Shown in pieces: positions 20,439-40,376 of a stretch of 64,000 bases of DNA; position 1 is the first letter of the stretch, and each line of letters begins with the position of its first letter. Under the pieces are notes generated by a model, which was given only the letters and a program-made list of their open reading frames with translations, searched no databases and was not told the DNA's origin. Source of the stretch: Candidatus Woesearchaeota archaeon (GTDB taxonomy: Archaea > Nanobdellota > Nanobdellia > Woesearchaeales > 21-14-0-10-32-9). The stretch lies in contig JAIPET010000003.1 of NCBI GenBank assembly GCA_021736975.1, positions 1,452 through 65,451 on the forward strand. The letters are read 5' to 3'. The position numbers were made by a program, and so were the translations under genes.

Positions 20439-21236
20439 TTAATTTAGGTTTTTTAACATCGTTATTGCTTCTTTGTCAAATTTTGAAAAGGCGAACCATT
20501 TTTTTCCTAAATCTTTTATTGATGCGCCAATATGATATATTTCGTTTTCATCAATTATTAAAAATCTGTCATGTGCTTTTTTGAATTCTTTTATTTGTAT
20601 TTTTTCATTTTGTTGTTCGTATTTTTTTATATCTAGTTTTAACTGTTCACTTATTTTATCAGTACATATTATTATTTTTACTTCTTTTTTCTTTTTTGAT
20701 AATAATATGAGCACGGAATCATCAATATAATTGTCAATCAATATTATTTCTTTTTCTGCTGTTCGAATAATATCTGAAACAAATTTATGCGCATCAAATA
20801 CTTGTCCATCGTAGAATATTCCTTTTTCCGGTTTGATATTTTTTTCCTGTATTAAATTGAATACTTTCTCAAATTTGTTGTTTGTTGTAATTTCAAAGCC
20901 TATTTGATTTCTTTCTAAATTATTTATTTTTTCAAATAATTGATAATTTGAGTTAATGATTTTTCTCATTGATACAAATGCTCTTATGATTTTTATATTG
21001 ACTTCTACAGCTTTTTTACTTCTTAAAACGCTTGAAAGGTTTGCCACTCCATGTTCTGTGAAAGCTTTAGGTTTATGACCTCCTAAATGTTTTACTGATG
21101 GTATCGCATTTTGCGATACCAAGATTTCTATTTCATTATTACTAATCTGAAACATGAAATCTTCTGGAAATCTTTGCTTATTTCTTTTTACTTGTTCATT
21201 TAACCTGCTTGTTGTAACTTCATATAACTCTGCCAA
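20439..21236 (-). CDS. ORF6N-domain (KilA-N-related) DNA-binding protein with family-typical C-terminal HDRFLIID...GASIKDLG region
   Basis: Signature block LAELYEVTTSRLNEQVKRNKQRFPEDFMFQ. C-terminal block LIDNYIDDSVL...AHDRFLIIDENEIYHIGASIKDLGKKWFAF. The track start is a TTG. Conserved N-terminal residues (KILEIRGQKVILDRD) continue in frame upstream, and an ATG at 21303 is one frame off across an A7 run. Convergent with giant ORF1, only 3 nt apart. Confidence 0.8.
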   Translation of the reverse strand: MAELYEVTTSRLNEQVKRNKQRFPEDFMFQISNNEIEILVSQNAIPSVKHLGGHKPKAFTEHGVANLSSVLRSKKAVEVNIKIIRAFVSMRKIINSNYQLFEKINNLERNQIGFEITTNNKFEKVFNLIQEKNIKPEKGIFYDGQVFDAHKFVSDIIRTAEKEIILIDNYIDDSVLILLSKKKKEVKIIICTDKISEQLKLDIKKYEQQNEKIQIKEFKKAHDRFLIIDENEIYHIGASIKDLGKKWFAFSKFDKEAITMLKNLN

Positions 21237-21658: not shown

Positions 21659-24600
21659 ATGATAAAAAGAACAAGTAAGCGGACGTTGAAAATAATTATG
21701 ATTATGTTCTTAACGGTAGCAATAGCTATATCTACAAATGCATTAACAACAGATAAAACAATTTATGAATTAGGAGAAACTGTAATAATAAATACTAATA
21801 CAACAAATTACACATTAGAAATACAATCATCAAATCAAAAATACAAATTAATAAACAATGAAGACTCAATAATATATTTTACTCCGACAATAATTGGAAC
21901 ACATACTATAACTTTGAATAATAATGAACTATTAAATTTTGAAGTAATACAATCAACACAAAAACAACCAACATCACAAATAAAACCAATTAAAGAAAAA
22001 TCAATTTCCCTAACATCTTTAATAAAAAAAGAAGATTTACCAATATCTATTTTATCAATAGAAGATAGTTGGTGGAATTCAAATTACAATTCAAGAAAAC
22101 AAATAAACATAACTAACAATGATGTAACAAATACAATAACAAACAAATACACAGCAAACATAACAATAAATACACAAACACTAATAACAAATAATAAATT
22201 ACAAGCAAATTGTGATGACTTAAGAATAATCTGGATAAATTCAACAACGCCAACTGAAATAGATAGAACAATAACTAATTGTAACCAAACAAACTCCGTA
22301 GTAGAATTTAAAATACAAAAAAACATATCTGCATCATCAAACTCAGACAAATATTATATTTATTATGAAAATCCCTCTGCAATAAATCCTCCAAATAACA
22401 AATCAAACATATATTATTTGTGGGAAGACTTTGAAGATCAAACACATCCTTTCTCAAATGGAGCATTAAGCCCTACAGTAACAACTGGTTCAGCTAAAAA
22501 TGGAGTTTATGGCTTAGAAGGAAACGGAGGAGGAGGATATAGAAGAGCAGTAGTTCCAGAAAATCTACCAAGAGGATTTACAATAGAATCATGGGTATAC
22601 AGTCACGGAGATGGAAGTAACGCAGATTTACCAGGAATAAGTTATGGAATGCAAACAAGTGAATTAAATGGATACCAAACAATACTGGACTGGAGATCGG
22701 CAACTGCAGGAAGTGCAGATATGCAAATAAGAGAAAACTACGCAAGTGGATCGCCGCTAGCAACAAGCACAGCAAACACAGTAAGCAAATATCAATGGTA
22801 CTATGTAACAACGACATGGAAAGAAAATGGAGATATACAAGCGACAATATATAATTCATCAATGTCATTATGGGGAACGATGAATGTAAATGACCCAACA
22901 TATACAACAGGATACTACGGAATAAATGCATATAAATCAGGACAATGGGATGACGTAAAAGTAAAATTATTTATGTCAACACAACCAACATATGATTTAT
23001 TAACAGAAGAACAAAGAAACCCTTTAACAGTATCCCTAAATTCTCCAGAAAATAATTCAGTAAAAGATATATTAACATTTAACATAAGTTGCACAGCTAC
23101 AACAGAATATGAATTAATAAATATAACGTTATACATAAATAGTACAGGTACCTGGCAAGCAAACCAAACAAAATCAGCAACAGGAAACAACTCACAAAAA
23201 AACTTTGAAATAACCCTTGAAAATTTAAACTCATACAAATATAATTGTTTAGCAATAGATAACGAATCAAATCAAGCATTCGCAAATGAAAATAACACAT
23301 TTACAGTAAATACATTTTTTGATTTTACTCCAGAAATAAATTTATCTTACCCACAAGAAAATTATACAAACAACACACAAAACATAATAAATTTAACATT
23401 AAATGCTAGTGTATCAGACGATGTAAATTTAGTTAATTGTTCATTATACCATAATTATTCAGGAACATGGAATCTAAATCAAACAAATACAGTTACAGGA
23501 AATTTAAACACAACAAGTTTTCAACTAAACAATATTGGAAACAAAAGTTTTATTTGGAATATTGGATGTTATGATGATGCAAACCAATTAAATTTTGCAG
23601 AAAATAATAGAACCATAATACTAGATAATGAAAATCCACAAATATCAATAAATGAACCAACAAATCAAATATACTACATAAATAACATAACAATAAACAT
23701 AACAACAAACGAACCACTAAATTATTGTAATTATACATTAGATAATTGGTTAACAAATAATTTAACAAATCAAATATCTTCAACAGAATATCAAGCAACA
23801 GAAAATAATCTTGCAGAAGGAACATACACAATAAAAACAAGTTGCGAAGATATACATGGAAATATAAATAATACGGAGCAAACGATATTTACAATAAATC
23901 ACAAAAAACCAAATGTAACTCTTACAAATCCAACGAACAATTATCTAAACAACACAAACCAATATGTGAATTTAACATTTTCTGCAACAGCTACAGATGG
24001 AAATGAATTAATGAATTGTAGTTTATATCATAATTATTCAGGAACATGGATATTAAATCAAACAAATCTAGTAACGGGAATAAGTAACACAACAAATTTT
24101 CAATTAAATAATTTAACAAACAAAATATTTATTTGGAACATAGAATGTTCAGATAAAAACAACGAAAAAGCATTTGCAACAAGTAATAGATCAATAATAC
24201 TGGATATAAATCCACCAGGATTAACAATAAATTCTCCAAATGAAACCTATCAAGATCCATCACCATTAATAATAATAAACATAACAGATCAAGCAGAAAC
24301 AGCATGGTACAACATAAACAATCAAAATAACATCACAATTTGCAATAATTGCACAGGAATACAAACAACATACAAAAATTTACCTGAAGGAAATTATCAA
24401 ATAAATATATATGTGAATGATACAAATGCAAATTTAAACTCAAAATCTGAATTTTTTACAATAAATCAAAATTTAAATTACTACGAAACATATGATGATC
24501 AAAGTTCACAATATGTTTTGAATGATTCTTTAATACAAAACGGACAATTACAATTTACAGGAACAGGAGGCGAAACACTTCTAAACGAATCATTTGACGA

Positions 24601-27600
24601 TAACAATTATTTAGATGGAAATCCAGTTACCTGGAATTTTGTAAATCAAGGAGTAGGAGATAGTACTCCGGAATGGCTAATAGCAGGAGGAATATTATCG
24701 GAAAGTGGAAATTGTCATGATGACTCAACAGATTTAGGAAGAGATACAACAGCAAAAGGATGCTATGCATACCCTGGAAATTATGAATGGACAGATATGA
24801 ATATCACAGCAAGAATAAGAGCGAGTGATGACGATGGGATGGGATTGATGTTTAGATATGTTGATCAAAATAATTACTACAGATATAGATTTTCAGGAAC
24901 AAGAGATTTTAGAAAATTAGATAAATTTGTCGGAGGTGTATGGTCAGAATTAGATGTGGACTATTTAGTGGATGGCGGATTCACACAAAATAATTGGCAT
25001 ATTATGACAATAACAATAATAGGCGATCAAATAGAAGGATATTTGAATGGTGTAAAAGTATTAAATGCAACAGATTCAAGCATAACAAATGGAAGTGTTG
25101 CATTATATTCCTGGGGTATGGACACTGGAAGTGTTGGAGGAGACTTTGATTACATAAATGTAACAGATTTAACACAAGGATATTCTTCAACAACATTTTA
25201 TTCAGAATTCATAAACACAACCAACACAAAAACATTAATATCAAATATAACTTGGAATGAAAATAATACTGATCAAAATAATAACATAACCATACAATTA
25301 ACAACAGATCAACAAAATTGGTGTCAAGCAACAAATAACCAAGGAATAAATACGGGAACTTGTTCAAATTTCACATTAAATAATAGTTTACAATACAAAG
25401 TATTATTTCAAAAAAATAATTCAGGAATAATAGGCTTAAATGATATAAATATAAGTTGGCAAGAAGATACAGAAAACCCTACAGTAGAAATAATAAACCC
25501 AATACAAAATCAAATATTAACAAACAATTACACAATAAATATTTCAATAAATGACAGTCAAAGTGGAATAAATACTGCAGAATATATAATAAAATATCAA
25601 AATCAAACAATAGCACAAAACTGGTCGCCTTTAATTTTAAATCAAGGAACAATAAATCAAGGATACTGGAGTTCAAATATAACAACAATAAACTTCCAAG
25701 AAGATACATATATTTTAATAATAAATGCAACAGATTTTGTTGGAAGATATAATGATTCAAAAAATATAAGTTTTTTTGTAGATAATATAGGACCCTCATT
25801 GACATTATTACAACCAACAGATAATCAAACTATAGAATTAGAGTCAATTTTAACAATAGCAGTAAACATAACAGATAATTTACAAATAAGTACAAACGCA
25901 ACAATAGAATATCCAAATACAACAACAACTCAAATTAATCTAATAAATACAATTGGAAATACATATGAAGCAAATTTTACGATGCCTATAATTCAAGGAA
26001 GATACAATATAACAATAAATACAAACAATTCAAACGGAAGAACAAATCAAACAACAACGTATATTCAAGGTAAAGATCTGCAAAATCCACAAGTAACTAT
26101 AATAAATCCTGCACCTTTAACAACAATAGAACAATTAACAAATATAGATATAAACGTAACAATAAATGATCAAACAAATACAACGGTGCAAGCAAATATA
26201 ACTCAACCAAACTTGCACGATGATCAAATAAGTTTAACTCAAATAAATAGTACACATTATTCAATAGAATATACTAATACTTCACAAATTGGGATATATA
26301 ATATAACAATAATTGCAACAGATGAAAATAATAATCAGAATGTAACTGAAACAATTTCTTTTCAAATTCAAGATTTAACAAAACCAACAGCATTTAATTT
26401 ATTAAGTCCGACAAATGCAACAATAAATACAACTATACAACCAATGCTTCAATGGGAACAAACTACTGAAGCTAACTTTAAAAATTATACAATAAATATA
26501 TATGAAGATCAAGCAAGAACAATTCTTAATGCAACATATTATACAACAACTATAACGAATACCTCGATAACAATTGATGCTCTTAATTCTGATGCTACAT
26601 ATTATTGGGATGTAACAGCACACGATTTGTATGGGAATAATAGAACTTCAAATCAAATATATAGCTATACAACAGATAATACTAATCCACAAATAAACTT
26701 ACAATCCCCAAATAACACAATAATAAGAATAAACACAACAACAATAAATTATACACCAATAGATACAAATCTAAAAAATTGTACATTATACTTAAATGAT
26801 ACAGGTGTTTTTGCACCAAATCAAACAACATTAAATCCAATAAATAATCAAATTAATCAATTCAATATAACCTTACAAGACAATTCATATGATTGGAATA
26901 TAAACTGTTATGATCAAGCAAATCAAAATAATTTTGCAATACAAAACAATACATTCACAATAAATACAAAACCAACAAAAATAAATTTGATGTCTCCACA
27001 AAATAACTCAATAGATTCGGATGGTATTATAACAATACAATACAATTTGTCCCACATAGAAAATGTAACAAATTGCACATTAAATTTTCAAGAAACACAA
27101 TACCAAATAACATCAATAAATCAAAATTTAACAAATAATTATCAATTAAATAATGTTGAAGCAGGACAATATAATTATAACTTAACTTGCGAAGACTTAT
27201 CAGGATATATTAACACTTCACAATCAAAAATAATAAATGTAATAAGAACAGAATCATTTTCAGGAAATACATCAAATATGAGTCAAGAATCACCAGAAAA
27301 CTTAATTAATTTAATATTAGAAAAACCAAATAAAGGAAAAATAAATTTTACAGAAACAATTAATTTATCTGGAGGCGCAAATCTAAATCAATTAGTAGCA
27401 ATAAATCAAAATTTCATATCAGTAGATACAATAACAGAACCAAGATTAAACAAATCTGCATCATTAACATTTTATAATTTATCATATCAATTCACACCAA
27501 GAATCCTAATAAATAATCAAATTTGCTCAGAATGTCAAATAATAAATTATGCTAGTAACACATTAATAATGAATGTAACTCATTTTACAAATTATTCAAC

Positions 27601-30600
27601 AGAAGCAAATACGCAATTAATAATCTGGGATCAAGATGATGATGTAGCAGGAAATAATCATGTATCCATAGGCGATCAAGTACAATTTTATGCAAACTAC
27701 ACAAATAAAACATCAGGATCATCAATTTTTGGGGCAGGAGCATATTGTGAAATAATATTTGATGATACAAATTTAATAAATATGACTTATAATGCAACAA
27801 CAAAAATATATGAATATAATAGAACATTTGATGCACAAAGTATAGAAACCTGGAATGTGAGTTGTATTGCAAGCGCACAAAATTATGAATCTTTAAATTC
27901 AACAGATAATGTAGAAATAAGAGGACCTGCACCAATAATAGAAAATGCATTTTTTAATGAAACAACTGCAAGAGCAGATGATTATATATTAGTAAATGCA
28001 ACAATAACAGATTCATCTGGAAATGATACAGTCACAAGTGTAATTTATTCTATGCAATATCCAAACGGAACTAAACAAAATTACTCAATGACTCAATCAA
28101 TAGACTATGATAAAACACATAGTTCAACAAATATATTATCAGAAGAAAGTTCATCAACGCCTCAATCAGATAGAAGAACAATAGGAGAAACAGGAGAAAT
28201 AAATTTAACAAGTATGACCTGGCAATTAGTAGAATTAACTAATACATATAATAATACACCAGTAATTGTTGCAATACCAACAACCCAAAATGCACCGGCT
28301 AGTTTTGATGATTCTTATATGATACCAACAATAAGCATGGTTAATGAAACTCATTTTAATATAACTACTTGTTTAGATAATGGGACATCAACATGCACTC
28401 CTAGCGATGTAGAAGAAACAATACATTATTTTGCATTTGATCCACAAGCATCAAACCAATTTTCATGGATAGATGTAGGAACTGTAAGTACAACAACAGG
28501 AGGAGCAGATACAACAGTGACTTTTGGAAAAACATTTTCAAATACTCCTGATATTTTCACAACAGCCCAAACATATAATCAAAATGGAAATATTGCAGCA
28601 ATAGCATGGGCAGAAGATACAGCAACAAAAACAACAAGTAGCGCACTAATAATTGGATGTGTACATCAAGGAACAAGCGATGCATGTGCAACAGGACAAC
28701 CAGATGAAACCATGGGTTATATAGCAATAGATTCTGCAAATATTAATATCACTTCTTGGCAAACAGGGTCTGCATCAATAAGTGCAAGTACTTGGACCGC
28801 GGCTGCATTTTCACCAACATATGCTGCGCCAAGAGTAATGGTAACACAAAATGATGATAATGGTGCTCAAGATCCAGAATATGCGTGGGCAAGAAGTTTA
28901 ACAGGAAGCGGAATGCAATATAGATATTGTGAAGCAGACGGAGCAGATTACTGTGATTCCCACACAGGAGAAGTAGTAAACTGGTTTGCATTAGAACAAG
29001 GAAATATAACTGCAAGAGGAGCATCAACAGATACAGAAGCAAACAAATCATATGAATATTATTACGATGTAGACAATAAAAACGTAGTAAACATAACAAA
29101 TATGAATATAACAATAGAAATAAGTGCATATAGTAATTTAGGCTCAATCAGCAAATCAAACAATGATCCAGATTTAATCATAGAAATTGCTTCAACAGAT
29201 AATTCAAGCTGGTCAGAAATAGGAACTTTAGGAGTATCAGGAATTGGAAATTACACATTAAATATAACAAATCAAAGCATATTAACAGCATGGATAACTC
29301 AAACAAATAGAGATATACGAATAAAACCAATAAATTTAGATTTTTACGATGATACAAATCAAGACTACATAAATTGGTCAGGAATATATTTACAAATGAC
29401 ATATGATGCAGAATCTTCAAATTGGTACCATATATTTACAGATACATATCAATTAAATGAATATAATCTAACAGACATATATGTATCTGATGAAGACTTA
29501 TTCACCAATCATAAATTATTTAATGATATAAGCTTCTCAATTTATACAACTGTTTTAGATTCATTTAATTTAACAAATCCAACAAATAATACTTTAAGTG
29601 CAGACAGACAACCAGTACTAAATTGGGAACAAACTTCAGCATATAAATTTAAAAATTACACAATTCAAATAGACAACAATTCAGATTTTTCAAGTCCTGA
29701 ACAAATAATAATAAAAACCGTACTAACAGAAAATACATCAACAACATCAAATTTACCAGCAGATCAAACAAGTTACTGGAGAGTTATTGCATACAATGAA
29801 TATAATAATGCAACATATTCAAATCAAATATTTAGATATGAAACAGATAATACGAATCCAATAATAAATTTAACAACACCTTCACAAAATCAAATATTTT
29901 ACACAAATACAATAATATTTAATTATACGCCTAATGATTTACATCTTAAAAATTGTACTTTATACACTGATGTGAATGGAACTTGGTTTGCAAATGAAAC
30001 AAATACAACTCCAATAAATAACCAACCAAATTATTTTAATAAAACAATAAATGATGGATATTATACTTGGAATGTGGAATGTTATGATGAAGTAAATCAA
30101 AAATCATTTTCAGAAAATAATAATTCATTCATTATAGATACTATTCCACCAACAATAAACTTAGAAACTCCGCAGAACAACACATTAAATGAAACAACAA
30201 ACAACATATTATTTGAATATAATGTCACAGATATATTAACATCAATACAAAATTGTGAAATGATATTAGATGAAGATATAAAAGACACAGATATATCAAT
30301 AACAGAAAATACAACTCAAAATTTTACAATTTTTGTAGCAAATGGAAATCACAATTGGAGCATAAATTGTACTGATGATAATGGACAAGTAGGTTCATCA
30401 GATATTTACAATATATCTGTAAATGTAGCATCAGAATCAGATCCTCCAATAATAGTATTGAATGAACCCTTAGAAAACACTTATTCACAATTAAATAATA
30501 TAACATTTAATTATACACCAAGTGATGCAACAGGAATAGAAAATTGTTCATTAATAATAGATGGAGAAATAAATCAAACAAACACATCTTTAACTAGTGA

Positions 30601-33600
30601 AGAAACATCAACTTTTCAAATAAATGAAATGCCTGATGCACAATATTCTTGGAAAATAGAATGTTATGATAATAATACTCAAGCAAAAGGAAATAGTGTA
30701 ACAAGAATATTAACAATAGATACAATAAATCCAATAATACAATTAAATTTACCAGATAATGATTCATTTTATACAAATTTAAATTTATTTTTTAATTACA
30801 CACCAACAGATACAAATTTAGATTATTGTGAATTATTTCATGATGATACTGGAATATTTGAACTTAAACAAACAAATAATTCTCCTATAAGTGGAATAGA
30901 AAATTTATTTAATCAAACTTTACAAGAAAATACTTATCTTTGGAATATAAGATGTGTTGATTTATCAGGAAGAGCATCTTTCGCAATACAAAATAAAACT
31001 GTTAAATTAGATGCAAATTCACCAAAATACTCAAATATTTCTATTAACCCAGAATCTTCAACAAATTATACAGAAGAACAAATATATGAATTTAACATAA
31101 CTATAAATGAAACATTTTTAGATACATTATACATACAACATAATTTTACAGGAACATTAACCAATTATTCAGTTACAACAAACCAAGGAAATACATATTT
31201 ATACAATTATACAGATATATTTCCAGGTAAGTACATATACAAATGGTTTATGAATGATTCATTAAATAGACAAAATGAAACATCTATCTTTAATTATCAA
31301 ATAAATATTTCAGAACCAAATATGACATTAACATTAAACGGACAACAAAATGACATAACTATAAATGAAACACAAAGTGTGACAATAATTTCAACATTAA
31401 ATGAACCAACAAATAAATATTATGAACTATATCAAAATGGAATATTAATAAATTATGGAACATCTCCACTTTTAAATATAACAACATACAATAATGCAGG
31501 AATTTATCAAATAATAACAAATATAACCGGATCTGAAAATTACACACAAAAATCAATAAACTATACAATAACAGTTAATGATGTAGATTCTCCGATCATT
31601 ACTTTAATTTATCCAGAACATAATTCTACGGTTGGAACCTCAAATATAACATTTCAATACAATGTAACTGATAGTACAAACATAACCAGTTGCGAATTAT
31701 ATGTAGATTCATCATTAAAAGATACAGATACAAACATAACAAAAAACACATTACAAACATTTAACTGGAATGTAGCTGACGGAGATCATGATTATTATAT
31801 AAGATGTTATGATGAATACAGCAATACAGGAACATCATCAACATATGATTTTTCAGTTCAAGACTCAACACAAATAAATATAATAATAAACACCACAAAA
31901 CAAACATATCAAGAAGGAGAAATAATAGAAATAAACAGTTTTACAGGAGACTTATTTGGAAGTCCACTTAATACCAGTTTAGAATTAGACTTAATATATA
32001 CAAATACAACAACCAGTTCAGCATCATGGTGGAATACGACCTGGCAAAAAAGAAAAGCAATAAAATTAAACAATCCTGATAGTTCAGCATCATTAAAAAC
32101 AGTGCATGTTAACATAACTAATTTAACAGGATATTTAACAGATTGTTATAAAGAATTAAGAATAATAAAAAACACTTCAACAGGACCAGAATTAATAGAA
32201 CATGAAATTATATCAGGAGATAATACAACCTTTTGTCAATTAAAATTTAATGCAGATTTATCAGCAAATGCAATAGATGAAATAAATTATCACGTTTATT
32301 ATGATAATAATACGCCTGTAACAGATCCTGGATTTACTGTTACAGATATAACATTTAATATACAAAGAGGAGAAATAACAGGATCAACAACATCTATAAC
32401 AGATACAATGAATCAAGTTAATCAAGCAAACTCATTCATAATATTAAGTTCTAAAGCATCATCAACTGCACCCAATGGAAATCAATTTACACCTAAATTT
32501 GATTCTGATACTCAAATAAGTTTTGACAGATATTCTGCAGTTGCAGGAACAGCAAGTTGGCAAGTAATAGAATCATCAGATTATTTTGTGCAAGCAAATA
32601 CAACAACATTAAGTACATCACAAGTAGCTACAACTGTTAACATATCTTCAATAAATACAGACAAAACAATAATAATACCTTATGCAAGAGCAAATGATGC
32701 AAGCGCATCAAATAATAACAGAGGATATGTATATGCTACAATATTAAATGAAACACAAATTCAATTAAATAGAAGTTCAACAGGTGCTGCTGCAAGCGTA
32801 TATTACCAAGTAATAGAATTCCCAGAAACTTACACAGTTAGATCAGGAACTTTAAGTTTTACAACAACATCAGCAACTGATACAGTTCCACAAGTAAATA
32901 CTAGTAGGAGCATGCTCTTCTTCTCATACGGTATTAATGGAGATACAGGACTAGATGCAAACCACATAAGAGGCAAATTTAATAGCGGAACACAAATAGA
33001 ATTTAACAGAGTAGTAAATCAAGGAACAGCATATGTATCTTGGTATGTTGTAGAATTTCCAGAAAGTTTTGTTACTCAATCAGCATCATCTACGATTACT
33101 GCGGATACAGGAGTTTTATTGACAAATCCAATTGTATTAAACAAAACATTTCATGTTCAATCAAGAGCAAGTTCAGGAGGCGGAACAACATATACGAATG
33201 CAATGGTTAAAACAAATCTGACAAATACAACACACATATACTTAGATAAAGAAACAACGTCAAACATTAACGATATAGATTGGATGTTAATAGAAAAAAC
33301 AACATCCACAACATCAACAAATACATCCATAGGAAATACTGAAGAATTAATACAAAAAAATGTTTCAATAACAGGACTTGACGGATTTGCAGATTTAATT
33401 TATTGGCAAACAATAAATGAATACTTTGGAAATTATTCTGTTGTAGGGCTAGCATCCAGATTTGCATTTACAAATTCAACAAATTATGCAACTTTTGAAT
33501 TAACAAATGATACAACGCCTCCAATAATAACTATAAATTATCCTGGATCAATCGAAAATATAAGTAACAGTTCAACTTTATTTAATTTCACAACATATGA

Positions 33601-36600
33601 TTATCAATTAAATAGTACTTGTAATATTACGATAGATGGAAGTATAAATCAATCAAATATTTTTACTGAAAATAATTTAAATGAATTAGTAACAACAAAT
33701 AATTTTACAGAAGGAATTCATTACTGGAATATAACTTGTTGGGATAAATATAATAATTCAAACACAACTAACACAAGAAATTTTACAACAAAATTAGAAT
33801 CTCCAGATGTACAATTAATAATTCCAACAAATAATCAAATATTAACTCAATCATTAGTATATTTTAATTATACTCCGACAGATACAACATTAAATAATTG
33901 TTCATTATATGGTAATTTTACAGGAGACTTTGAAATAAACCAAACAAATAATATACCTATAAATGGTCTTCAAAATTCATTTAACTTAACATTACAAGAT
34001 AATATATATTTATGGAATATTAAATGTGTAGACAATGTAAGTCAAGAAAGTTATGCAACAACAAATTACACATTTAAATTAGATACAACCGCGCCACAAA
34101 TAAATTTATTAAATCCAACTAATAATACATTAAATACAACAACGAACAATATTTTATTTGAATACTCTACAACAGACACATTATCAGAAATAAGTTATTG
34201 TTCAGTAATTTTAGATGGAGAAATAAAAGATACAGATATAACAATATCAGAAAGTGCAACTCAAAACTTTACAATTTTTGTAGCAAATGGAGAACATAAT
34301 TGGAGTATAAATTGTACCGATTCAAATGGACTAGAAAGTTCATCAAATAAATATAATTTATCAATGAATGTATTATTTGAATCAGATCCTCCAGTAATAG
34401 TATTAAATTATCCTTTAGAATATTATTATACAAACATAACAAACATAACATTCAATTATACTCCAAGTGACGCATCAGATGTAGAAAATTGTTCATTATT
34501 AATAAATGGAGAAATAAACCAAACAAATACATCTCCAATAAATTTAATACCAAATTACTTTGAATTAACAAACATACCAGAAAATAATTATACTTGGCAA
34601 ATACAATGTTACGATAATGAAACATTTGCATTAGGTTACTCTATTCAAAGCGATTTTACAATAGATTTAACAAATCCATATATTAATTTAACATCTCCAA
34701 ATGATTATTCATTTTACACATCTTCAAATGTAGAATTTAATTATACTCCATTAGATACAAATATAGAAAACTGTTCATTATATGGAAATTTTTTAGGCTC
34801 TTTTGAATTACAAAATACAAATACAACACCAATATCAAATCAAACAAATACCTTTACAGAAATAATTAATGACGGTACATATTTATGGAACGTAAAATGT
34901 TATGATAAAGCAAATAGAAATTCATTCTCAGAAAACAACTACACAGTATATGTTGATGCGAATGCACCAAATTTATTAAATTCACAAAACAATCCAACAA
35001 GTCCAGCAGAATATGAATTATTACGAACTTATTATTTTAATATAACTATAGATGAACAATTCAAAGATACTGTGTGGATAGAACATAATTTTTCAGGAAC
35101 AATGCAAAACTATACAGTAACAAATAATATTAGCAACACATTTATGTACAATTATACAGATATAGCAGTAGGAAATTATTATTATAAATGGTATGCAAAT
35201 GATTCATTAGGACGAATAGGAAATACTTCAACAACTAATTATGAAATAACTAAAAAACAAGGAAGTGTAGGTTTATTATTAAATGGATTAGCATCAAACG
35301 TAACTATAAATGAAAGTAATCCTTTAAATGTAACAGGATATACAATAGAACCGAGCCAAGGATATATTATATTATATCAAGATGGAGATATGATAAATAA
35401 TGGGACGGACTATCTTGAAAATATAACTTCATATTCTCAACCAGGATCTTATAATTTAACTGTGTTTTATAATGAAACACAAAATTATACTGCTTCATCA
35501 CAAACATATTTTGTTAATGTTGTAGATGTATCAAATCCAACTGTAACTTTAATATATCCAGCAAATGAATCTTACGTAGGAAGTTTAGATATAAATTTTA
35601 GATATGATGTAACTGATAATGTTGGAATAGACAATTGCAAATTATATGTTGATGATATATTAGAAGATACAGATACAAGTATAGAAAATAATGCAGAAAA
35701 TCAATTTCCTTACACATTTTCAGGAGATGGAAATTATTCGTGGTATGTAACTTGCACAGACACATCATCAAATAGTATGACAACACAAACAAATAATTTT
35801 ACAGTAATAGAAACAACAGAAATGATTGTAAATACATCAATAACTAAACAAATATATCAAAAAGGAGAAATAATAAATGCATTAACAAAAGTAACAGATC
35901 AATTTGAATTGGAATTAGAAAATGCAAATTTAACATTAAATTTAATAATAGGAAATACTACAATTCCTTGGTGGAATGAATCTTGGGGAAGAAGACAAAA
36001 AATACTATTAGAAGAAACAACAGGACAAAATCAAACAAAGGAAACGATAAATATAACTATTGACACACAAACAATCATTTTACAAAATCTATCAGAATCA
36101 AACTGTATAGATTACAGATTTATAGATTCAAATTTAAACGAATTAGAATACAAATTAATCTCAGGTTGTAATACAACTCAAACAACATTTTTTATAAAAA
36201 CAAATTTGACTGCAGGAACAAATAACACAATATATGTGTATTATAATAATTCGCAAGCAACAAATACAAGTAATGAAAATTTGAAAAGTACTATAGGAGA
36301 AACAGGAGCAATAAATATAAATAGTTTTACAGGATCAATAAAAAATTTCAACAATCAATACGCTTATCAACCAATAATACTTGCAACACCAGTAACACAA
36401 AATGGACCCACAAGTACTGATGATTCATATAATATACCAACATTATTTGATACAGGAAATAATTATATGAATATAAGTTTATGTCAAGATAATGGTTTAG
36501 TTACTTGTAGCAATCCTGGAGCAACAGAAACAGTTCATTATTTTGTCTTTGATGTAAATAGAACAAATAAATATTCTTGGATAGAAGTAGGGACTGTTAA

Positions 36601-38761
36601 TGTTACAACTGATGGTATTGATACTGTATTAAACTTTGGAAAAACATTTAGTAACGTTCCAACAGTTTGGACAACAGCACAAACATATAATCAAGGAGGA
36701 AATATTTCATCAATAACATGGGTAGAAGATACAGCAACAAAAACAATAAGTAGTGCCCCTTTAATTGGATGTGTTCATCAAGGAATAGCTAATGTTTGTG
36801 AACCCGGACAACCTGATGAAACAATAGGATATATTGCAATAGACCCTTTAAATGTTAATATATCAAGTTATCAAGAAGGAAATTCAGACATTAGTAATAG
36901 TGAGTGGACTACAGCAGTATTCTCGCCAGTATATACAAATCCTAGAGTTATGGTTACAGAAAATGATGATGACGGCGGAGAAGATCCAGAATATCCTTGG
37001 GCAAAAAACGTAGTAAGTACTGGGATGGATTTTAGATTCTGTGAACAAGATGCTTCAGATGTATGTAATTCTCATACAAGTGAAGTAGTAAATTGGTTTG
37101 CATTAGAAGATGGAGATATACTAGCACCATTATTAGCAACAAATGATGTAACGATATATCAAGAAAACGAAGAAATATTAGTTTTAACAATACAAAATCA
37201 AACAAACCAAACAGGACAATGGAATTGGGATATAGATACATTGCAATTTGAATATTATAATTATTCAATTGTCTCAAAAGCTAGTTATTCAGGATACAAT
37301 GATAATTATGATTATGCTCATTTTGAATTAATACCAGATACAACTGCACCGAACGTAACTTTAATAATTCCAACAATAAATTATATAATATCAAATAATT
37401 CGTTAATATTTAATTGGAGTGCAAATGATTACCAAAGAAACCAAACATGCAATTTAACTATAGATGGAACAAATAATCAAACAAATATATTTCAAAATAA
37501 TGATGAAATAATATCAAGAAATATAAATAATATAATAGAAGGAAAACATAATTGGTCTGTAAACTGCGTAGATGTTTTAGGAAACTACGGTCCTTCAGAA
37601 ACAAGAAATTTCACAATAGATTTAACACCACCAACAATACAAATAATAAATCCAATAATAGAATATAATACTACAAACACTACAATAAATTTTACATTTA
37701 ACGTTACAGATCAATTCGCAGAGCAAACAAATTGTTCAATATATTTTTATGGAATAAATATAACGCAAAATGCAACAATACAAAATGCAACAAATTCAGG
37801 AATAAATGCTAATATTTCATATGGACGTTATGAATGGCTAGTAAAATGTTTTGAACCATCAGGAAATCAAGCAACATCAAATCCAAGAAACATCACTATA
37901 CTAAGCCCTCCAACAGACATATACATAAAAATAAATCAAAATAAAAGTACTACAATAAACTGGACAAATATACCGGAAGCAGAATCATATAATGTGTATA
38001 TAACAAACAATTTCACAGCAGGATTTCCTTTAACACCCAATGTAAGCGGAATAATAACTAATGAATTCACAGATCAAACAGCAAATACAACAATACAAAG
38101 ATACTATAAAATAAGTACTCAAAGAAATACAATAGAAGCTTCATCAAATGAATATGTAGGAAAATATGAATCAGAACTTCAAACAGGATATAATATGATA
38201 AGTTCACCATTAACATACTCGGATTTAGAATTAGAAAATGGAACAAATAATGCATATACTTTTAATCCAAACAATCAATGTATACAATCTTTATGGAAAT
38301 ATGAATCAGGAACTTTCAAAAGATCAGACTGGCTCACAGATAAATTTGTACCTGCATCAGGAAGTGAAGATTTCATATCAATAAATAGTACAGAAGGATA
38401 CTGGATAGAAACAAACCAAACATGTAATATAACATACATAGGAAAAATAAAAGAAATAAATTCAACAATATCTTTAAACACAGGACCAAACTTAGTATCT
38501 TGGTATACAATAAATGAAAAAACACTTCCAACAAATTATCAAACACCAATAATAAATACAAATCCAACTAATTCAGTTCAAGCAATTAATAGATTTAATG
38601 CAATAACACAAGAATTTGAATTGACAATACATTATGTAATAACTGGAACTGCATGGGGTTGGTGGCCATCATTTAATAATCAAGAGTTCCTATCTTTAAA
38701 ACCAACAGAAGGATATTATTTTGATGCAAATCAAACAAATATTTGGGAGCATGAACCATGA
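21659..38761 (+). CDS. Giant multidomain surface/adhesin-like protein, 5700 aa, with N-terminal signal/anchor
   Basis: 17.1-kb open frame. N-terminus MIKRTSKRTLKIIMIMFLTVAIAISTNA is signal-peptide-like. Three DUF2341-like starts: SWWNSNYNSRKQINI near 22069, SWWNTTWQKRKAIKL near 32026, PWWNESWGRRQKILL near 35966. LamG-like region after the first. ConA/DUF1080-like jelly roll about 24570-25170. Two FN3-like units about 26380-26680 and 29565-29850. Many ~95-aa Ig-like Cys-pair modules. Two copies of a ~282-aa Cys-loop beta-sandwich module at 28171-29020 and 36283-37125. Stop TGA at 38759-38761; no C-terminal TM segment. Confidence 0.9.
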   Translation: MIKRTSKRTLKIIMIMFLTVAIAISTNALTTDKTIYELGETVIINTNTTNYTLEIQSSNQKYKLINNEDSIIYFTPTIIGTHTITLNNNELLNFEVIQSTQKQPTSQIKPIKEKSISLTSLIKKEDLPISILSIEDSWWNSNYNSRKQINITNNDVTNTITNKYTANITINTQTLITNNKLQANCDDLRIIWINSTTPTEIDRTITNCNQTNSVVEFKIQKNISASSNSDKYYIYYENPSAINPPNNKSNIYYLWEDFEDQTHPFSNGALSPTVTTGSAKNGVYGLEGNGGGGYRRAVVPENLPRGFTIESWVYSHGDGSNADLPGISYGMQTSELNGYQTILDWRSATAGSADMQIRENYASGSPLATSTANTVSKYQWYYVTTTWKENGDIQATIYNSSMSLWGTMNVNDPTYTTGYYGINAYKSGQWDDVKVKLFMSTQPTYDLLTEEQRNPLTVSLNSPENNSVKDILTFNISCTATTEYELINITLYINSTGTWQANQTKSATGNNSQKNFEITLENLNSYKYNCLAIDNESNQAFANENNTFTVNTFFDFTPEINLSYPQENYTNNTQNIINLTLNASVSDDVNLVNCSLYHNYSGTWNLNQTNTVTGNLNTTSFQLNNIGNKSFIWNIGCYDDANQLNFAENNRTIILDNENPQISINEPTNQIYYINNITINITTNEPLNYCNYTLDNWLTNNLTNQISSTEYQATENNLAEGTYTIKTSCEDIHGNINNTEQTIFTINHKKPNVTLTNPTNNYLNNTNQYVNLTFSATATDGNELMNCSLYHNYSGTWILNQTNLVTGISNTTNFQLNNLTNKIFIWNIECSDKNNEKAFATSNRSIILDINPPGLTINSPNETYQDPSPLIIINITDQAETAWYNINNQNNITICNNCTGIQTTYKNLPEGNYQINIYVNDTNANLNSKSEFFTINQNLNYYETYDDQSSQYVLNDSLIQNGQLQFTGTGGETLLNESFDDNNYLDGNPVTWNFVNQGVGDSTPEWLIAGGILSESGNCHDDSTDLGRDTTAKGCYAYPGNYEWTDMNITARIRASDDDGMGLMFRYVDQNNYYRYRFSGTRDFRKLDKFVGGVWSELDVDYLVDGGFTQNNWHIMTITIIGDQIEGYLNGVKVLNATDSSITNGSVALYSWGMDTGSVGGDFDYINVTDLTQGYSSTTFYSEFINTTNTKTLISNITWNENNTDQNNNITIQLTTDQQNWCQATNNQGINTGTCSNFTLNNSLQYKVLFQKNNSGIIGLNDINISWQEDTENPTVEIINPIQNQILTNNYTINISINDSQSGINTAEYIIKYQNQTIAQNWSPLILNQGTINQGYWSSNITTINFQEDTYILIINATDFVGRYNDSKNISFFVDNIGPSLTLLQPTDNQTIELESILTIAVNITDNLQISTNATIEYPNTTTTQINLINTIGNTYEANFTMPIIQGRYNITINTNNSNGRTNQTTTYIQGKDLQNPQVTIINPAPLTTIEQLTNIDINVTINDQTNTTVQANITQPNLHDDQISLTQINSTHYSIEYTNTSQIGIYNITIIATDENNNQNVTETISFQIQDLTKPTAFNLLSPTNATINTTIQPMLQWEQTTEANFKNYTINIYEDQARTILNATYYTTTITNTSITIDALNSDATYYWDVTAHDLYGNNRTSNQIYSYTTDNTNPQINLQSPNNTIIRINTTTINYTPIDTNLKNCTLYLNDTGVFAPNQTTLNPINNQINQFNITLQDNSYDWNINCYDQANQNNFAIQNNTFTINTKPTKINLMSPQNNSIDSDGIITIQYNLSHIENVTNCTLNFQETQYQITSINQNLTNNYQLNNVEAGQYNYNLTCEDLSGYINTSQSKIINVIRTESFSGNTSNMSQESPENLINLILEKPNKGKINFTETINLSGGANLNQLVAINQNFISVDTITEPRLNKSASLTFYNLSYQFTPRILINNQICSECQIINYASNTLIMNVTHFTNYSTEANTQLIIWDQDDDVAGNNHVSIGDQVQFYANYTNKTSGSSIFGAGAYCEIIFDDTNLINMTYNATTKIYEYNRTFDAQSIETWNVSCIASAQNYESLNSTDNVEIRGPAPIIENAFFNETTARADDYILVNATITDSSGNDTVTSVIYSMQYPNGTKQNYSMTQSIDYDKTHSSTNILSEESSSTPQSDRRTIGETGEINLTSMTWQLVELTNTYNNTPVIVAIPTTQNAPASFDDSYMIPTISMVNETHFNITTCLDNGTSTCTPSDVEETIHYFAFDPQASNQFSWIDVGTVSTTTGGADTTVTFGKTFSNTPDIFTTAQTYNQNGNIAAIAWAEDTATKTTSSALIIGCVHQGTSDACATGQPDETMGYIAIDSANINITSWQTGSASISASTWTAAAFSPTYAAPRVMVTQNDDNGAQDPEYAWARSLTGSGMQYRYCEADGADYCDSHTGEVVNWFALEQGNITARGASTDTEANKSYEYYYDVDNKNVVNITNMNITIEISAYSNLGSISKSNNDPDLIIEIASTDNSSWSEIGTLGVSGIGNYTLNITNQSILTAWITQTNRDIRIKPINLDFYDDTNQDYINWSGIYLQMTYDAESSNWYHIFTDTYQLNEYNLTDIYVSDEDLFTNHKLFNDISFSIYTTVLDSFNLTNPTNNTLSADRQPVLNWEQTSAYKFKNYTIQIDNNSDFSSPEQIIIKTVLTENTSTTSNLPADQTSYWRVIAYNEYNNATYSNQIFRYETDNTNPIINLTTPSQNQIFYTNTIIFNYTPNDLHLKNCTLYTDVNGTWFANETNTTPINNQPNYFNKTINDGYYTWNVECYDEVNQKSFSENNNSFIIDTIPPTINLETPQNNTLNETTNNILFEYNVTDILTSIQNCEMILDEDIKDTDISITENTTQNFTIFVANGNHNWSINCTDDNGQVGSSDIYNISVNVASESDPPIIVLNEPLENTYSQLNNITFNYTPSDATGIENCSLIIDGEINQTNTSLTSEETSTFQINEMPDAQYSWKIECYDNNTQAKGNSVTRILTIDTINPIIQLNLPDNDSFYTNLNLFFNYTPTDTNLDYCELFHDDTGIFELKQTNNSPISGIENLFNQTLQENTYLWNIRCVDLSGRASFAIQNKTVKLDANSPKYSNISINPESSTNYTEEQIYEFNITINETFLDTLYIQHNFTGTLTNYSVTTNQGNTYLYNYTDIFPGKYIYKWFMNDSLNRQNETSIFNYQINISEPNMTLTLNGQQNDITINETQSVTIISTLNEPTNKYYELYQNGILINYGTSPLLNITTYNNAGIYQIITNITGSENYTQKSINYTITVNDVDSPIITLIYPEHNSTVGTSNITFQYNVTDSTNITSCELYVDSSLKDTDTNITKNTLQTFNWNVADGDHDYYIRCYDEYSNTGTSSTYDFSVQDSTQINIIINTTKQTYQEGEIIEINSFTGDLFGSPLNTSLELDLIYTNTTTSSASWWNTTWQKRKAIKLNNPDSSASLKTVHVNITNLTGYLTDCYKELRIIKNTSTGPELIEHEIISGDNTTFCQLKFNADLSANAIDEINYHVYYDNNTPVTDPGFTVTDITFNIQRGEITGSTTSITDTMNQVNQANSFIILSSKASSTAPNGNQFTPKFDSDTQISFDRYSAVAGTASWQVIESSDYFVQANTTTLSTSQVATTVNISSINTDKTIIIPYARANDASASNNNRGYVYATILNETQIQLNRSSTGAAASVYYQVIEFPETYTVRSGTLSFTTTSATDTVPQVNTSRSMLFFSYGINGDTGLDANHIRGKFNSGTQIEFNRVVNQGTAYVSWYVVEFPESFVTQSASSTITADTGVLLTNPIVLNKTFHVQSRASSGGGTTYTNAMVKTNLTNTTHIYLDKETTSNINDIDWMLIEKTTSTTSTNTSIGNTEELIQKNVSITGLDGFADLIYWQTINEYFGNYSVVGLASRFAFTNSTNYATFELTNDTTPPIITINYPGSIENISNSSTLFNFTTYDYQLNSTCNITIDGSINQSNIFTENNLNELVTTNNFTEGIHYWNITCWDKYNNSNTTNTRNFTTKLESPDVQLIIPTNNQILTQSLVYFNYTPTDTTLNNCSLYGNFTGDFEINQTNNIPINGLQNSFNLTLQDNIYLWNIKCVDNVSQESYATTNYTFKLDTTAPQINLLNPTNNTLNTTTNNILFEYSTTDTLSEISYCSVILDGEIKDTDITISESATQNFTIFVANGEHNWSINCTDSNGLESSSNKYNLSMNVLFESDPPVIVLNYPLEYYYTNITNITFNYTPSDASDVENCSLLINGEINQTNTSPINLIPNYFELTNIPENNYTWQIQCYDNETFALGYSIQSDFTIDLTNPYINLTSPNDYSFYTSSNVEFNYTPLDTNIENCSLYGNFLGSFELQNTNTTPISNQTNTFTEIINDGTYLWNVKCYDKANRNSFSENNYTVYVDANAPNLLNSQNNPTSPAEYELLRTYYFNITIDEQFKDTVWIEHNFSGTMQNYTVTNNISNTFMYNYTDIAVGNYYYKWYANDSLGRIGNTSTTNYEITKKQGSVGLLLNGLASNVTINESNPLNVTGYTIEPSQGYIILYQDGDMINNGTDYLENITSYSQPGSYNLTVFYNETQNYTASSQTYFVNVVDVSNPTVTLIYPANESYVGSLDINFRYDVTDNVGIDNCKLYVDDILEDTDTSIENNAENQFPYTFSGDGNYSWYVTCTDTSSNSMTTQTNNFTVIETTEMIVNTSITKQIYQKGEIINALTKVTDQFELELENANLTLNLIIGNTTIPWWNESWGRRQKILLEETTGQNQTKETINITIDTQTIILQNLSESNCIDYRFIDSNLNELEYKLISGCNTTQTTFFIKTNLTAGTNNTIYVYYNNSQATNTSNENLKSTIGETGAININSFTGSIKNFNNQYAYQPIILATPVTQNGPTSTDDSYNIPTLFDTGNNYMNISLCQDNGLVTCSNPGATETVHYFVFDVNRTNKYSWIEVGTVNVTTDGIDTVLNFGKTFSNVPTVWTTAQTYNQGGNISSITWVEDTATKTISSAPLIGCVHQGIANVCEPGQPDETIGYIAIDPLNVNISSYQEGNSDISNSEWTTAVFSPVYTNPRVMVTENDDDGGEDPEYPWAKNVVSTGMDFRFCEQDASDVCNSHTSEVVNWFALEDGDILAPLLATNDVTIYQENEEILVLTIQNQTNQTGQWNWDIDTLQFEYYNYSIVSKASYSGYNDNYDYAHFELIPDTTAPNVTLIIPTINYIISNNSLIFNWSANDYQRNQTCNLTIDGTNNQTNIFQNNDEIISRNINNIIEGKHNWSVNCVDVLGNYGPSETRNFTIDLTPPTIQIINPIIEYNTTNTTINFTFNVTDQFAEQTNCSIYFYGINITQNATIQNATNSGINANISYGRYEWLVKCFEPSGNQATSNPRNITILSPPTDIYIKINQNKSTTINWTNIPEAESYNVYITNNFTAGFPLTPNVSGIITNEFTDQTANTTIQRYYKISTQRNTIEASSNEYVGKYESELQTGYNMISSPLTYSDLELENGTNNAYTFNPNNQCIQSLWKYESGTFKRSDWLTDKFVPASGSEDFISINSTEGYWIETNQTCNITYIGKIKEINSTISLNTGPNLVSWYTINEKTLPTNYQTPIINTNPTNSVQAINRFNAITQEFELTIHYVITGTAWGWWPSFNNQEFLSLKPTEGYYFDANQTNIWEHEP
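29855..32020 (+). repeat. Intragenic segmental duplication copy A (about 2.2 kb, Ig-like module array) in giant ORF2
   Basis: Runs NPIINLTTPSQNQ ... PPTINLETPQNNTLNETTNNILFEYNVTD ... ESDPPIIVLNEPLE ... DANSPKYSNISINPESS ... VDSPIITLIYPEHNS ... up to SWWNTTW. Colinear module by module with copy B. Confidence 0.7.
33800..35965 (+). repeat. Intragenic segmental duplication copy B (about 2.2 kb) in giant ORF2
   Basis: Runs SPDVQLIIPTNNQ ... APQINLLNPTNNTLNTTTNNILFEYSTTD ... ESDPPVIVLNYPLE ... DANAPNLLNSQNNPTSP ... VSNPTVTLIYPANES ... up to PWWNESW. Long identical peptides are shared with copy A, e.g. TQNFTIFVANG(N/E)HNWSINCTD. Confidence 0.7.
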
Positions 38762-40350
38762 AAACACATAAACTAAAAATAAAAAATGTAACTTTTGCGA
38801 TTATCCAAATATTGTTATTAATACTATTATCTTTTTCAGTATTTGCAATTCCAGTTCCTAAAGGAATAGATGGGACAATATACAGATTAGATGGTTTAAC
38901 ACAAGTAATAAAAGGAATACCTATAACAATAACAAATTTAGAAACAGGAGAAATAAAAAATATTGTTACGGGAAAAGGAACTTTTGGAAGATATTCAACA
39001 ACATTAGAATGGGTAGAAGGAACAAAAATACAAATAAAAGCAAGCAATCCAATAAATGAAATAAAAAGAAATACAACTATTACAGGAATAATACACAAAT
39101 TTGATTTAATATTGAATATGAGTATACCTAATTTACCTCCAGAAATTATAACTGAGAATTTAGGACAAATTAATGAAGAATATTTATTTGAAAAACAAAT
39201 TGAAATATTTGACTGGAATGATGATAAAATAATTTTTTCATTACAAACAAAACCAGAAGGAATGAAAATAACTTCTCAAGGAAAAATAAGTTGGACTCCA
39301 ACAAAATATCAATCAGGAATACACGAAATAACCATTGTTGCAAATGATGGCGAATTAATTACAACTAAAACATTTCAATTAATAGTGATGAATACAATAA
39401 ATGAAACAAATAACATTAATCAAACTGAGATTAATCCAACAAAAATTAATAACTTTGGAAATAGAGCTGGAAATACAAATTTAGCTTTAGAAACTCAATC
39501 TTTAACATTTTTAGGAAGTTTACCCAAATCAAACTTAACAACAAATAAAACAAATATTTCAAAAGAAAATAAACATTTGCAAATAATAAAAAATCCAAAA
39601 ATCACAAATCAAAAAACAGTATATGAATATATACAAACAAATCAACACAAAGGAAAAACTGAAATAAAAATACTTAAAAATTGGTTAAAAGAAAAAGGAA
39701 TAACAGTTAAAGATATAATTATCGAAGAATTAAATGGAAACAAATGGAAAGAACAAAAAATCAATCCTATTTATGATGATGGAAAAAACATAGTTTTTGA
39801 AACAAATTTAAAACAAAATAAATTATATGCAATAACAATAAAAGAAGGAGTGGAGATATTAGAAAATAAAGAACAAATAACAAATATAAATCCAACAAGA
39901 AAAATTCATGGAAAAATAATAATTCAAGGAGTGGATATTTCAAAAAATCCTAAAATAACAATAAATACAACAAATCAAATTGTAGATGCACTAGTAGAAA
40001 AAACTGACAAAAAAACAATATTTTATCAAGCAACTTTAAAAGGAAATCCAGAACATGCAACAATAAAAATTAACTATGCAAATAAAGAAATAGTGCAGCA
40101 AATAAATTTATATCAAGAAATAACTACGCACGATATGACTATAAAAAATAATGCTTTTAATTTAATTACAGGATTTGTATCAGGTCAAGGAGAAGTAGAA
40201 ACCAACCAAATAATTCACATATTAGCACTTTTCGCATTTACTATGCTACTGGGAACAGCAATTTACTTTAATAAAAAAATTAACAAAAAAAATAAAGAAA
40301 TTAAAGATGATGAAAAAAATAAATTTAATGAACAAAGTAAAAAAAATTAA
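38758..40350 (+). CDS. Bitopic surface protein (N-terminal signal/TM, Ig-like 'putative Ig/He_PIG-type' domain, C-terminal TM plus Lys-rich tail), 530 aa
   Basis: ATGA overlap with the giant ORF2 stop. N-terminal hydrophobic segment VTFAIIQILLLILLSFSVFAIP. Motif KITSQGKISWTPTKYQSGIHEITIVANDG. C-terminal IIHILALFAFTMLLGTAIYF followed by NKKINKKNK. Confidence 0.85.
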   Translation: MKTHKLKIKNVTFAIIQILLLILLSFSVFAIPVPKGIDGTIYRLDGLTQVIKGIPITITNLETGEIKNIVTGKGTFGRYSTTLEWVEGTKIQIKASNPINEIKRNTTITGIIHKFDLILNMSIPNLPPEIITENLGQINEEYLFEKQIEIFDWNDDKIIFSLQTKPEGMKITSQGKISWTPTKYQSGIHEITIVANDGELITTKTFQLIVMNTINETNNINQTEINPTKINNFGNRAGNTNLALETQSLTFLGSLPKSNLTTNKTNISKENKHLQIIKNPKITNQKTVYEYIQTNQHKGKTEIKILKNWLKEKGITVKDIIIEELNGNKWKEQKINPIYDDGKNIVFETNLKQNKLYAITIKEGVEILENKEQITNINPTRKIHGKIIIQGVDISKNPKITINTTNQIVDALVEKTDKKTIFYQATLKGNPEHATIKINYANKEIVQQINLYQEITTHDMTIKNNAFNLITGFVSGQGEVETNQIIHILALFAFTMLLGTAIYFNKKINKKNKEIKDDEKNKFNEQSKKN

Positions 40351-40376
40351 TATTGAAAAGATTAAGAATATTTAAA

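Follow-up and report, generated by a model that had tools for sequence, protein, structure and literature searches.

H-type lectins are classically homotrimers, in which N-acetylgalactosamine (GalNAc) is bound in pockets at the interfaces between protomers (PMC6048534). The pilus-tip protein CofB of enterotoxigenic Escherichia coli (ETEC) forms an H-type lectin trimer as well, but the N-terminal peptide of CofJ is found in the pocket where the sugar would be expected, and isothermal titration calorimetry showed no binding of GalNAc (PMC6048534). Here, we describe a protein module that appears to use the same fold in a different way. It was found in a 64,000-nucleotide (nt) stretch of DNA (hereafter, the window) from a Candidatus Woesearchaeota archaeon (assembly GCA_021736975.1, contig JAIPET010000003.1, positions 1,452 to 65,451 of the forward strand). 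The giant gene open reading frame 2 (ORF2) of this window carries two copies of the module, which is 279 amino acids (aa) long, and our analysis suggests that the unit is a single-chain and probably pseudo-trimeric binding head with the H-type lectin fold that is displayed twice on a giant surface protein. We consider this reading the probable one, with considerable room for doubt.

Both copies lie in frame in ORF2. The first begins with RRTIGETGEINLTSMTWQ (aa 2172-2189) and ends with VVNWFALEQGNI (aa 2439-2450), and the second begins with KSTIGETGAININSFTGS (aa 4876-4893) and ends with VVNWFALEDGDI (aa 5143-5154). The 279 residues of the two copies are colinear and can be aligned with zero gaps, and in a BLAST comparison they share 55% identity between aa 2161-2458 and aa 4865-5162 (E 1.6e-102). 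A hidden Markov model (HMM) of the module, run over ORF2 and the second giant gene of the window, ORF1, detected exactly two copies in ORF2 and zero in ORF1. Since the two copies cease to resemble each other about 10 aa beyond the module edges, the module seems to be a discrete unit that has been duplicated or shuffled as a block. The possibility that the copies are part of a larger segmental duplication was ruled out, because their flanks are unrelated and the other duplication within ORF2 has a different offset. A preliminary description, made from the sequence alone, had located the colinear pair correctly, but its coordinates start one base early, which is out of frame, and end 12 and 5 nt late. 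The strings that it listed as common to both copies are mostly so, except that copy 1 reads IIGCVHQG rather than LIGCVHQG and APRVMVT rather than NPRVMVT.

Each copy consists of three sub-repeats (a, b and c), as had been proposed. The pairwise identity among the three is 17-21%. When profiles of the sub-repeats from 42 family members were aligned with hhalign, all pairs were found to be related (a/b E 1.1e-21, a/c E 4.2e-25, b/c E 9.3e-19; 99% probability), and by this measure the triple repeat is real and ancient. The repeats are joined by short linkers, and their endings fall at module residues 82-90, 179-187 and 267-275, which are identical positions in both copies. The proposed ending E-(T/V)-x-x-(Y/W)-(F/I)-A-(F/I/L)-(D/E) applies to all repeats of both copies, with the reservation that the first ending of copy 2 (ETVHYFVFD) has a valine in the place of the alanine. 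Furthermore, every repeat contains one Cys-x(n)-Cys loop, such that the pairs 67/75, 163/172 and 253/261 are present in copies 1 and 2 alike. Across the family, sub-repeat c shows the strongest conservation of the three.

The relationship to H-type lectins was visible in Pfam searches. For both copies, H_lectin (PF09458) was the best Pfam match (copy 1, 16.2 bits, E 0.012; copy 2, 14.0 bits, E 0.059), and it covers the F-x-x-x-F-x-x-x-P-x-(I/V) stretch of the middle repeat whose likeness to H-type lectins had been pointed out beforehand. The gathering threshold of this Pfam model is 24 bits. The window copies do not reach it, but the cut-off is exceeded by the homologue P0002 (423 aa, 47% identity, 98% module coverage; 29.4 bits, E 9e-7) and likewise by P0019 (26.4 bits) and P0091 (28.9 bits). 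H_lectin also matched 33 of 42 diverse module sequences with E<=0.01; for 20 of the 42 the E value was 3e-5 or lower, and the lowest was 2.2e-12. A phage tail-fibre domain, Gp53-like_C (PF21882), was matched by four of these 42 sequences at E<=0.01, and on neither of the window copies at E<=10. Because of the H_lectin matches across the module family, profile searching indicates that the module belongs to the H-type lectin superfamily as a divergent branch, with the window copies at the detection limit of the Pfam model.

Structure prediction points in the same direction. Given an alignment of 42 sequences, AlphaFold (AF2) produced an all-beta model with six strands per repeat at equivalent positions, with a predicted local distance difference test (pLDDT) score of 95.8 and a predicted template modelling (pTM) score of 0.93; a model from a 6-sequence alignment had a pLDDT of 49.5 and was discarded. 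In this model, the three repeats are confidently predicted to form one compact unit. When the model was compared with the PDB, Foldseek found local matches of single repeats to the coral lectin SLL-2 (3wmp; probability 1.00, TMt 0.62), Helix pomatia agglutinin (HPA; 2ce6 and 2cgy; probability 0.91, TMt 0.54-0.56), Helix aspersa agglutinin (HAA; 4q56; probability 0.75, TMt 0.51) and discoidin II (2vme; probability 0.33, TMt 0.25), as well as to phage tailspike and R-pyocin fibre domains (4y9v, 4ru4, 4ru5 and 6cl6; probability 0.95-0.99, root-mean-square deviation (rmsd) 2.3-3.9 A). The top PDB match of Foldseek, the APC-beta domain of Plasmodium (7pln), superposed with a TM-score of 0.24 and an rmsd of 14 A and was set aside as an artefact of repeated beta patterns. 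In BFVD, one viral protein matched the whole module (E 1.4e-10, TMq 0.71, 305 columns), and single repeats matched many phage proteins that are named as H-type lectin domain or tail fibre. The lectin-type sandwich suspected in the preliminary description is thus what the model displays, and the assignment that each sub-repeat folds like, and is homologous to, an H-type lectin domain is largely supported by model and profiles together. The fold is lectin-like, the triple repeat is present, and no strong match to a known family of non-binding function was obtained.

One homologue provides a clue as to how the three domains are arranged. In P0019 (666 aa), in the region of residues ~150-590, the whole triple module sits inside a Laminin_G_3 domain, the LamG-like start of which precedes the module, while only profile positions 50-150 follow it. 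The N- and C-termini of the module must therefore be adjacent. This implied proximity of the termini, together with the short linkers and the pTM of 0.93, favours a closed and compact pseudo-trimer. In our reading, the module comprises three tandem divergent domains with the H-type lectin fold. Each is a beta-sandwich of six strands, the last of which is preceded by the Cys-bracketed loop, and the three would pack within the one chain as a rigid globular head. Such a head would be the single-chain counterpart of the classical homotrimer, probably with a pseudo-C3 arrangement.

The module is not confined to this archaeon. A word-indexed search with a 5-mer prefilter yielded only 4 relatives and wrongly suggested that it is rare, whereas 436 protein clusters came out at E<=1e-3, and 115 of them at E<=1e-30, when 1.84 billion representatives were searched exhaustively with an HMM. 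Most of the carriers are very large proteins with several domains. A 5-mer prefilter evidently under-samples low-complexity, fast-evolving surface domains badly (4 versus 436). The best 150 proteins included 95 with full-length modules, 120 modules in all: there is one module in 72 of these proteins, two in 21 and three in 2. A scan of one genome per species with a 6-row alignment located the module in DPANN archaea ('Archaeon BMS3Abin16' at 66% identity, Nanoarchaeota, Woesearchaeota), in bacteria of the candidate phyla radiation (CPR; Saccharibacteria, Gracilibacteria, Absconditabacterales), in one Omnitrophota genome and in metagenome-assembled genomes labelled Gammaproteobacteria or unclassified bacteria. 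The G+C content of these loci ranges from 0.29 to 0.63. Gracilibacteria and Absconditabacterales are expected to use genetic code 25, and at their loci (L008 and L011, respectively) UGA interrupts the frame under code 11, which leaves 33 and 5 aa open, while 1700 and 1364 aa are open under code 25.

Besides the giant carriers, there are short ones (P0081, P0120, P0047, P0133, P0057 and P0002), which combine a pilin-, pseudopilin- or ArlF-like hydrophobic leader with one or two modules. P0081 and P0120 have N-termini of the type GYS(I/V)IEVLLA and weak matches to minor pilins, P0047 and P0133 carry archaeal class-III-like leaders (by motif scan only; NCBIfam gave no match), and P0057 has a weak match to ArlF. 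This suggests that in CPR bacteria and DPANN archaea the module can be displayed at the tip of a pilus.

Conservation was counted over 111 modules. All six cysteines are present in 101 of them and none in 5, and such an all-or-none pattern fits three intradomain disulfides that are kept or lost together; three disulfides per module are therefore probable. G8, E254 and H264 are invariant, E6 (98%), P30 and G231 are conserved in at least 98% of the modules, and R251 in 94%. A more symmetric subfamily has, in all three repeats, a GE(A/S)G start and the pattern R-x-C-E...C-D-x-H...E-x-x-x-W near the end. In the branch to which the window copies belong, the full signature is retained in repeat c only. 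Should the pockets be located where the domains meet, this asymmetry argues for a single dominant site, and we infer one main pocket at the c/a junction (R251, E254 and H264 together with E6 and G8) rather than three equal sites.

How might such a head be used? ORF2 appears to be a secreted or surface-anchored giant protein of a DPANN archaeon (of the Woesearchaeota/Nanoarchaeota type), with two heads that are about 2700 residues apart. Its N-terminus, MIKRTSKRTLKIIMIMFLTVAIAISTNA, in which basic residues give way to a hydrophobic segment, resembles a Sec signal peptide or membrane anchor; a search for the prepilin motif G-x-x-x-x-E at this N-terminus found none. The signal or anchor, the all-or-none cysteines and the thioredoxin-fold genes of the window (see Table) argue for an extracellular, oxidised setting. 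The heads are most likely to be ligand-binding modules, i.e., adhesins, whose target on a partner cell would be a surface glycan or perhaps a peptide. An adhesin is suggested by the very large multi-domain carriers, by the fusions to pilin-like proteins and by the spread over DPANN, CPR and Omnitrophota. Their likely role would thus be in cell-cell attachment.

Several observations weigh against this interpretation. Both window copies remain below the H_lectin cut-off, with the middle repeat alone being detected. PDB searches by sequence (with the single module, 6-row and 41-row sub-repeat profiles and the 42-row module profile) reached no solved H-type lectin and returned chance-level matches only (T4 gp18 sheath at E 0.013, a helicase, a semaphorin). 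The gp18 match (14.6 bits) was taken as chance, as it comes from a different fold context and was not reproduced with profiles. The searches thus yielded no alignment by which the residues that contact sugar in HPA and discoidin could be placed on the module. The structural similarity to solved H-type lectins is moderate, with TM-scores of 0.5-0.6, and Foldseek found no PDB chain that resembles the entire module. Repeats a and b of the window copies do not have the R-x-C-E...C-D-x-H signature, and its loss may mean that there is at most one functional site. Finally, CofB, which has the same fold at its trimer interface, binds a peptide and not GalNAc (PMC6048534).

This last point leads to an alternative in which fold and architecture are as we describe them, but the pocket has been repurposed for a protein or peptide, be it a secreted partner, another part of the giant protein or a surface protein of the host. 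In addition to the precedent of CofB (PMC6048534), such a change of ligand would agree with the far divergence of the module from sugar-binding H-type lectins (a sub-threshold Pfam score and no sequence match to a solved lectin) and with the pilin-like fusions among its homologues. We nonetheless regard it as rather unlikely, since the invariant set of Glu, His and Arg fits the coordination of a carbohydrate or a metal at least equally well, ORF2 is not a pilin, and no candidate partner came to light.

Invariance of E254 and H264, and 98% conservation of E6, in modules down to ~25% identity would also be unusual for a pure spacer. This speaks against the idea of a rigid knob or spacer of purely structural function, which would have no ligand of its own and be kept only for the stability of long extracellular fibres. 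Such a role would suit giant surface proteins that are rich in structural beta-sandwiches (Big_7, Big_13 and CARDB in ORF1 and ORF2), and the three probable disulfides do suggest selection for stability. However, the triple is intact in 120 examined modules, it has moved as a block into pilin-like proteins and into the interior of a LamG domain, and the characterised related domains bind receptors or ligands, which together make a mere spacer improbable. A virus-derived receptor-binding domain from the tip of a tail fibre, with ORF2 or its neighbourhood belonging to a mobile or viral element, would account for the Foldseek matches to phage tailspike, tail-fibre and pyocin fibre domains, the whole-module match to a viral protein, the Gp53-like_C matches in the family and the ORF6N gene between the giant genes, but we consider it very improbable, as the window contains ordinary cellular genes (for a THUMP methyltransferase, a ParA/Mrp-type ATPase, a major facilitator superfamily (MFS) transporter and glycosyltransferases of family 2 (GT2)), PHROGs gave no match to either window copy, the IMG/VR scan gave no close relatives of the module, and Pfam scans of the window found no capsid, terminase or tail genes.

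Returning to the binding head with the H-type lectin fold, one may take the argument a step further. The single-chain pseudo-trimeric H-type lectin could be a head for host attachment that ultra-small episymbionts have in common, namely DPANN archaea, CPR bacteria and Omnitrophota, perhaps along with some of their viruses. It would have been exchanged across domains of life and would have one invariant pocket (E6, G8, R251, E254, H264) for a glycan of the host envelope, with two degenerate interfaces free to diversify. We put this forward as a possible but doubtful extension.

The coordinates of the module and of the features around it are collected in the Table.

Table. Module copies, their sub-repeats and other features of the window (positions count from its first nucleotide)
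Feature	Position	Strand	Details
Module copy 1	28172-29008	+	ORF2 aa 2172-2450, 279 aa; three H-type-lectin-like repeats; HMM domain 1-279, 526 bits
Copy 1, sub-repeat a	28172-28444	+	module residues 1-91; starts GETG (E6, G8); Cys67/Cys75; ends ETIHYFAFD
Copy 1, sub-repeat b	28445-28732	+	residues 92-187; Cys163/Cys172; ends ETMGYIAID; weak Pfam H_lectin match at 114-142
Copy 1, sub-repeat c	28733-29008	+	residues 188-279; NDDNGAQDPEY, R251, Cys253, E254, Cys261, H264, W271
Module copy 2	36284-37120	+	ORF2 aa 4876-5154, 279 aa; three repeats; same six Cys positions; HMM 530 bits
Copy 2, sub-repeat a	36284-36556	+	
Copy 2, sub-repeat b	36557-36844	+	weak H_lectin match at residues 117-142
Copy 2, sub-repeat c	36845-37120	+	
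ORF2	21659-38761	+	giant gene carrying both module copies, 5700 aa
Partial DUF2341 match	36101-36277	+	Pfam; profile positions 1-61 of 84; adjoins N-terminus of copy 2
Larger internal duplication of ORF2	29633-31258 and 33572-35203	+	aa 2659-3200 versus 3972-4515; 48% identity, E 2e-134
ORF1	45-20435	+	second giant gene, 6796 aa; first gene of the window
ORF6N protein gene	20439-21236	-	265 aa, between ORF1 and ORF2; ORF6N match E 1.9e-22
Two genes directly 3' of ORF2	38758-42860	+	overlapping or abutting; 530 aa (He_PIG) and 835 aa (Big_7)
Thioredoxin_4/DsbA-like protein gene	50337-51026	+	
Thioredoxin protein gene	54072-54806	+	

Outside the modules, Pfam recognises only Big_7, DUF2341 and weak Ig-like matches in ORF2, which explain a small fraction of the protein. 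The DUF2341 match ends three residues before copy 2, and copy 1 has no such neighbour; copy 2 may lie inside a DUF2341 or LamG-like domain or be joined to one. The larger duplication within ORF2, whose offset is unlike that of the module pair, involves domains that have no Pfam annotation. ORF1 contains five Laminin_G_3 domains as well as FG-GAP repeats, Pentaxin, Big_13 and CARDB, and it has about 1490 aa in common with ORF2 (aa 4412-5831 versus ORF2 aa 3299-4728, 32% identity). The two genes downstream of ORF2 both carry Ig-like domains and look like they form one surface-protein operon with it. Given the domains of ORF1, ORF2 and these two genes, the first 43 kb of the window appear to be largely occupied by genes for surface proteins. 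ORF6N is a DNA-binding domain that is typical of phage antirepressor-type proteins, and the position of such a gene between two giant genes is odd.

Further downstream, the two thioredoxin-fold genes bracket two GT2 glycosyltransferase genes, and all of these may be relevant to the disulfides and the glycosylation of the giant proteins, which are rich in Cys and in Asn and Thr. The window as a whole has a G+C content of 27.6%. The rest of it consists of ordinary cellular genes, including those for the methyltransferase, the ATPase and the transporter mentioned above; every named relative of the THUMP tRNA methyltransferase comes from Woesearchaeota or Nanoarchaeota, which assigns the window to a DPANN archaeon. 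Scans of the window for tRNAs and for Rfam families gave no match.

Little is known about host recognition and attachment in DPANN archaea and CPR bacteria, and their giant surface proteins are mostly unannotated. In this context, the module offers a concrete and expressible handle on host attachment, as it is compact, confidently modelled, conserved across lineages and built on a fold that binds ligands. It could be used on glycan arrays, for staining host cells, or as a marker for attachment genes in metagenomes. If our reading is true, H-type lectins would join those folds in which a tandem, single-chain pseudo-oligomer has replaced a homo-oligomer, leaving three sites free to diverge. If the module turns out not to bind, it would still be a well-defined new domain family for annotation.

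With respect to novelty, neither archaeal H-type lectins nor H-type lectins in a tandem single-chain form turned up in full-text searches of the literature, and the family is absent from a 2024 review on lectins with tandem repeats (PMC11186620). The statement in the preliminary description that no archaeal example had been described holds for the literature searched, but the module is common in undescribed metagenomic proteins of DPANN and CPR organisms, and some homologues already bear a PF09458 tag in databases. The domain family itself is known, and it is the single-chain triple form that we have not found described.

Compared with the H-type lectins proper (PF09458: HPA, HAA, coral SLL-2 and the C-terminal domain of Dictyostelium discoidin I/II), the module has in each sub-repeat the same six-stranded beta-sandwich, its opening (G...W..V.F...F...P.V) fits the N-terminal half of the Pfam model, and there are three domains per functional unit in both. 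In contrast to them, the module joins its three domains in a single polypeptide, in which they have drifted apart to the low pairwise identities given above, each repeat has a conserved Cys-x7-8-Cys loop, conservation is concentrated in repeat c, and the whole forms part of proteins that are thousands of residues long, in DPANN, CPR and Omnitrophota.

The type IVb minor pilins CofB (from ETEC CFA/III) and TcpB have a C-terminal H-type lectin domain and present a trimeric head at the distal tip of an adhesive appendage. The homologues of the module with pilin-like N-termini (P0081, P0120, P0047, P0133 and P0057) resemble them in this design. However, the CofB trimer is made of three chains and the module of three domains from one chain, and ORF2 has a Sec-type signal or anchor instead of a prepilin leader. 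In phage tail-fibre, tailspike and R-pyocin fibre domains (Gp53-like_C), onto which single repeats of the module superpose, the fold is likewise found in receptor-binding contexts, but there it occurs as homotrimers of single domains, and the genomic setting of the module is cellular. A parallel in terms of construction comes from lectins whose fold is unrelated to that of the module. In beta-trefoil and beta-prism I/II lectins, three tandem repeats in one chain take the place of an oligomer and provide built-in multivalency (PMC11186620), and it is this same logic that the module seems to follow with the H-type lectin fold.

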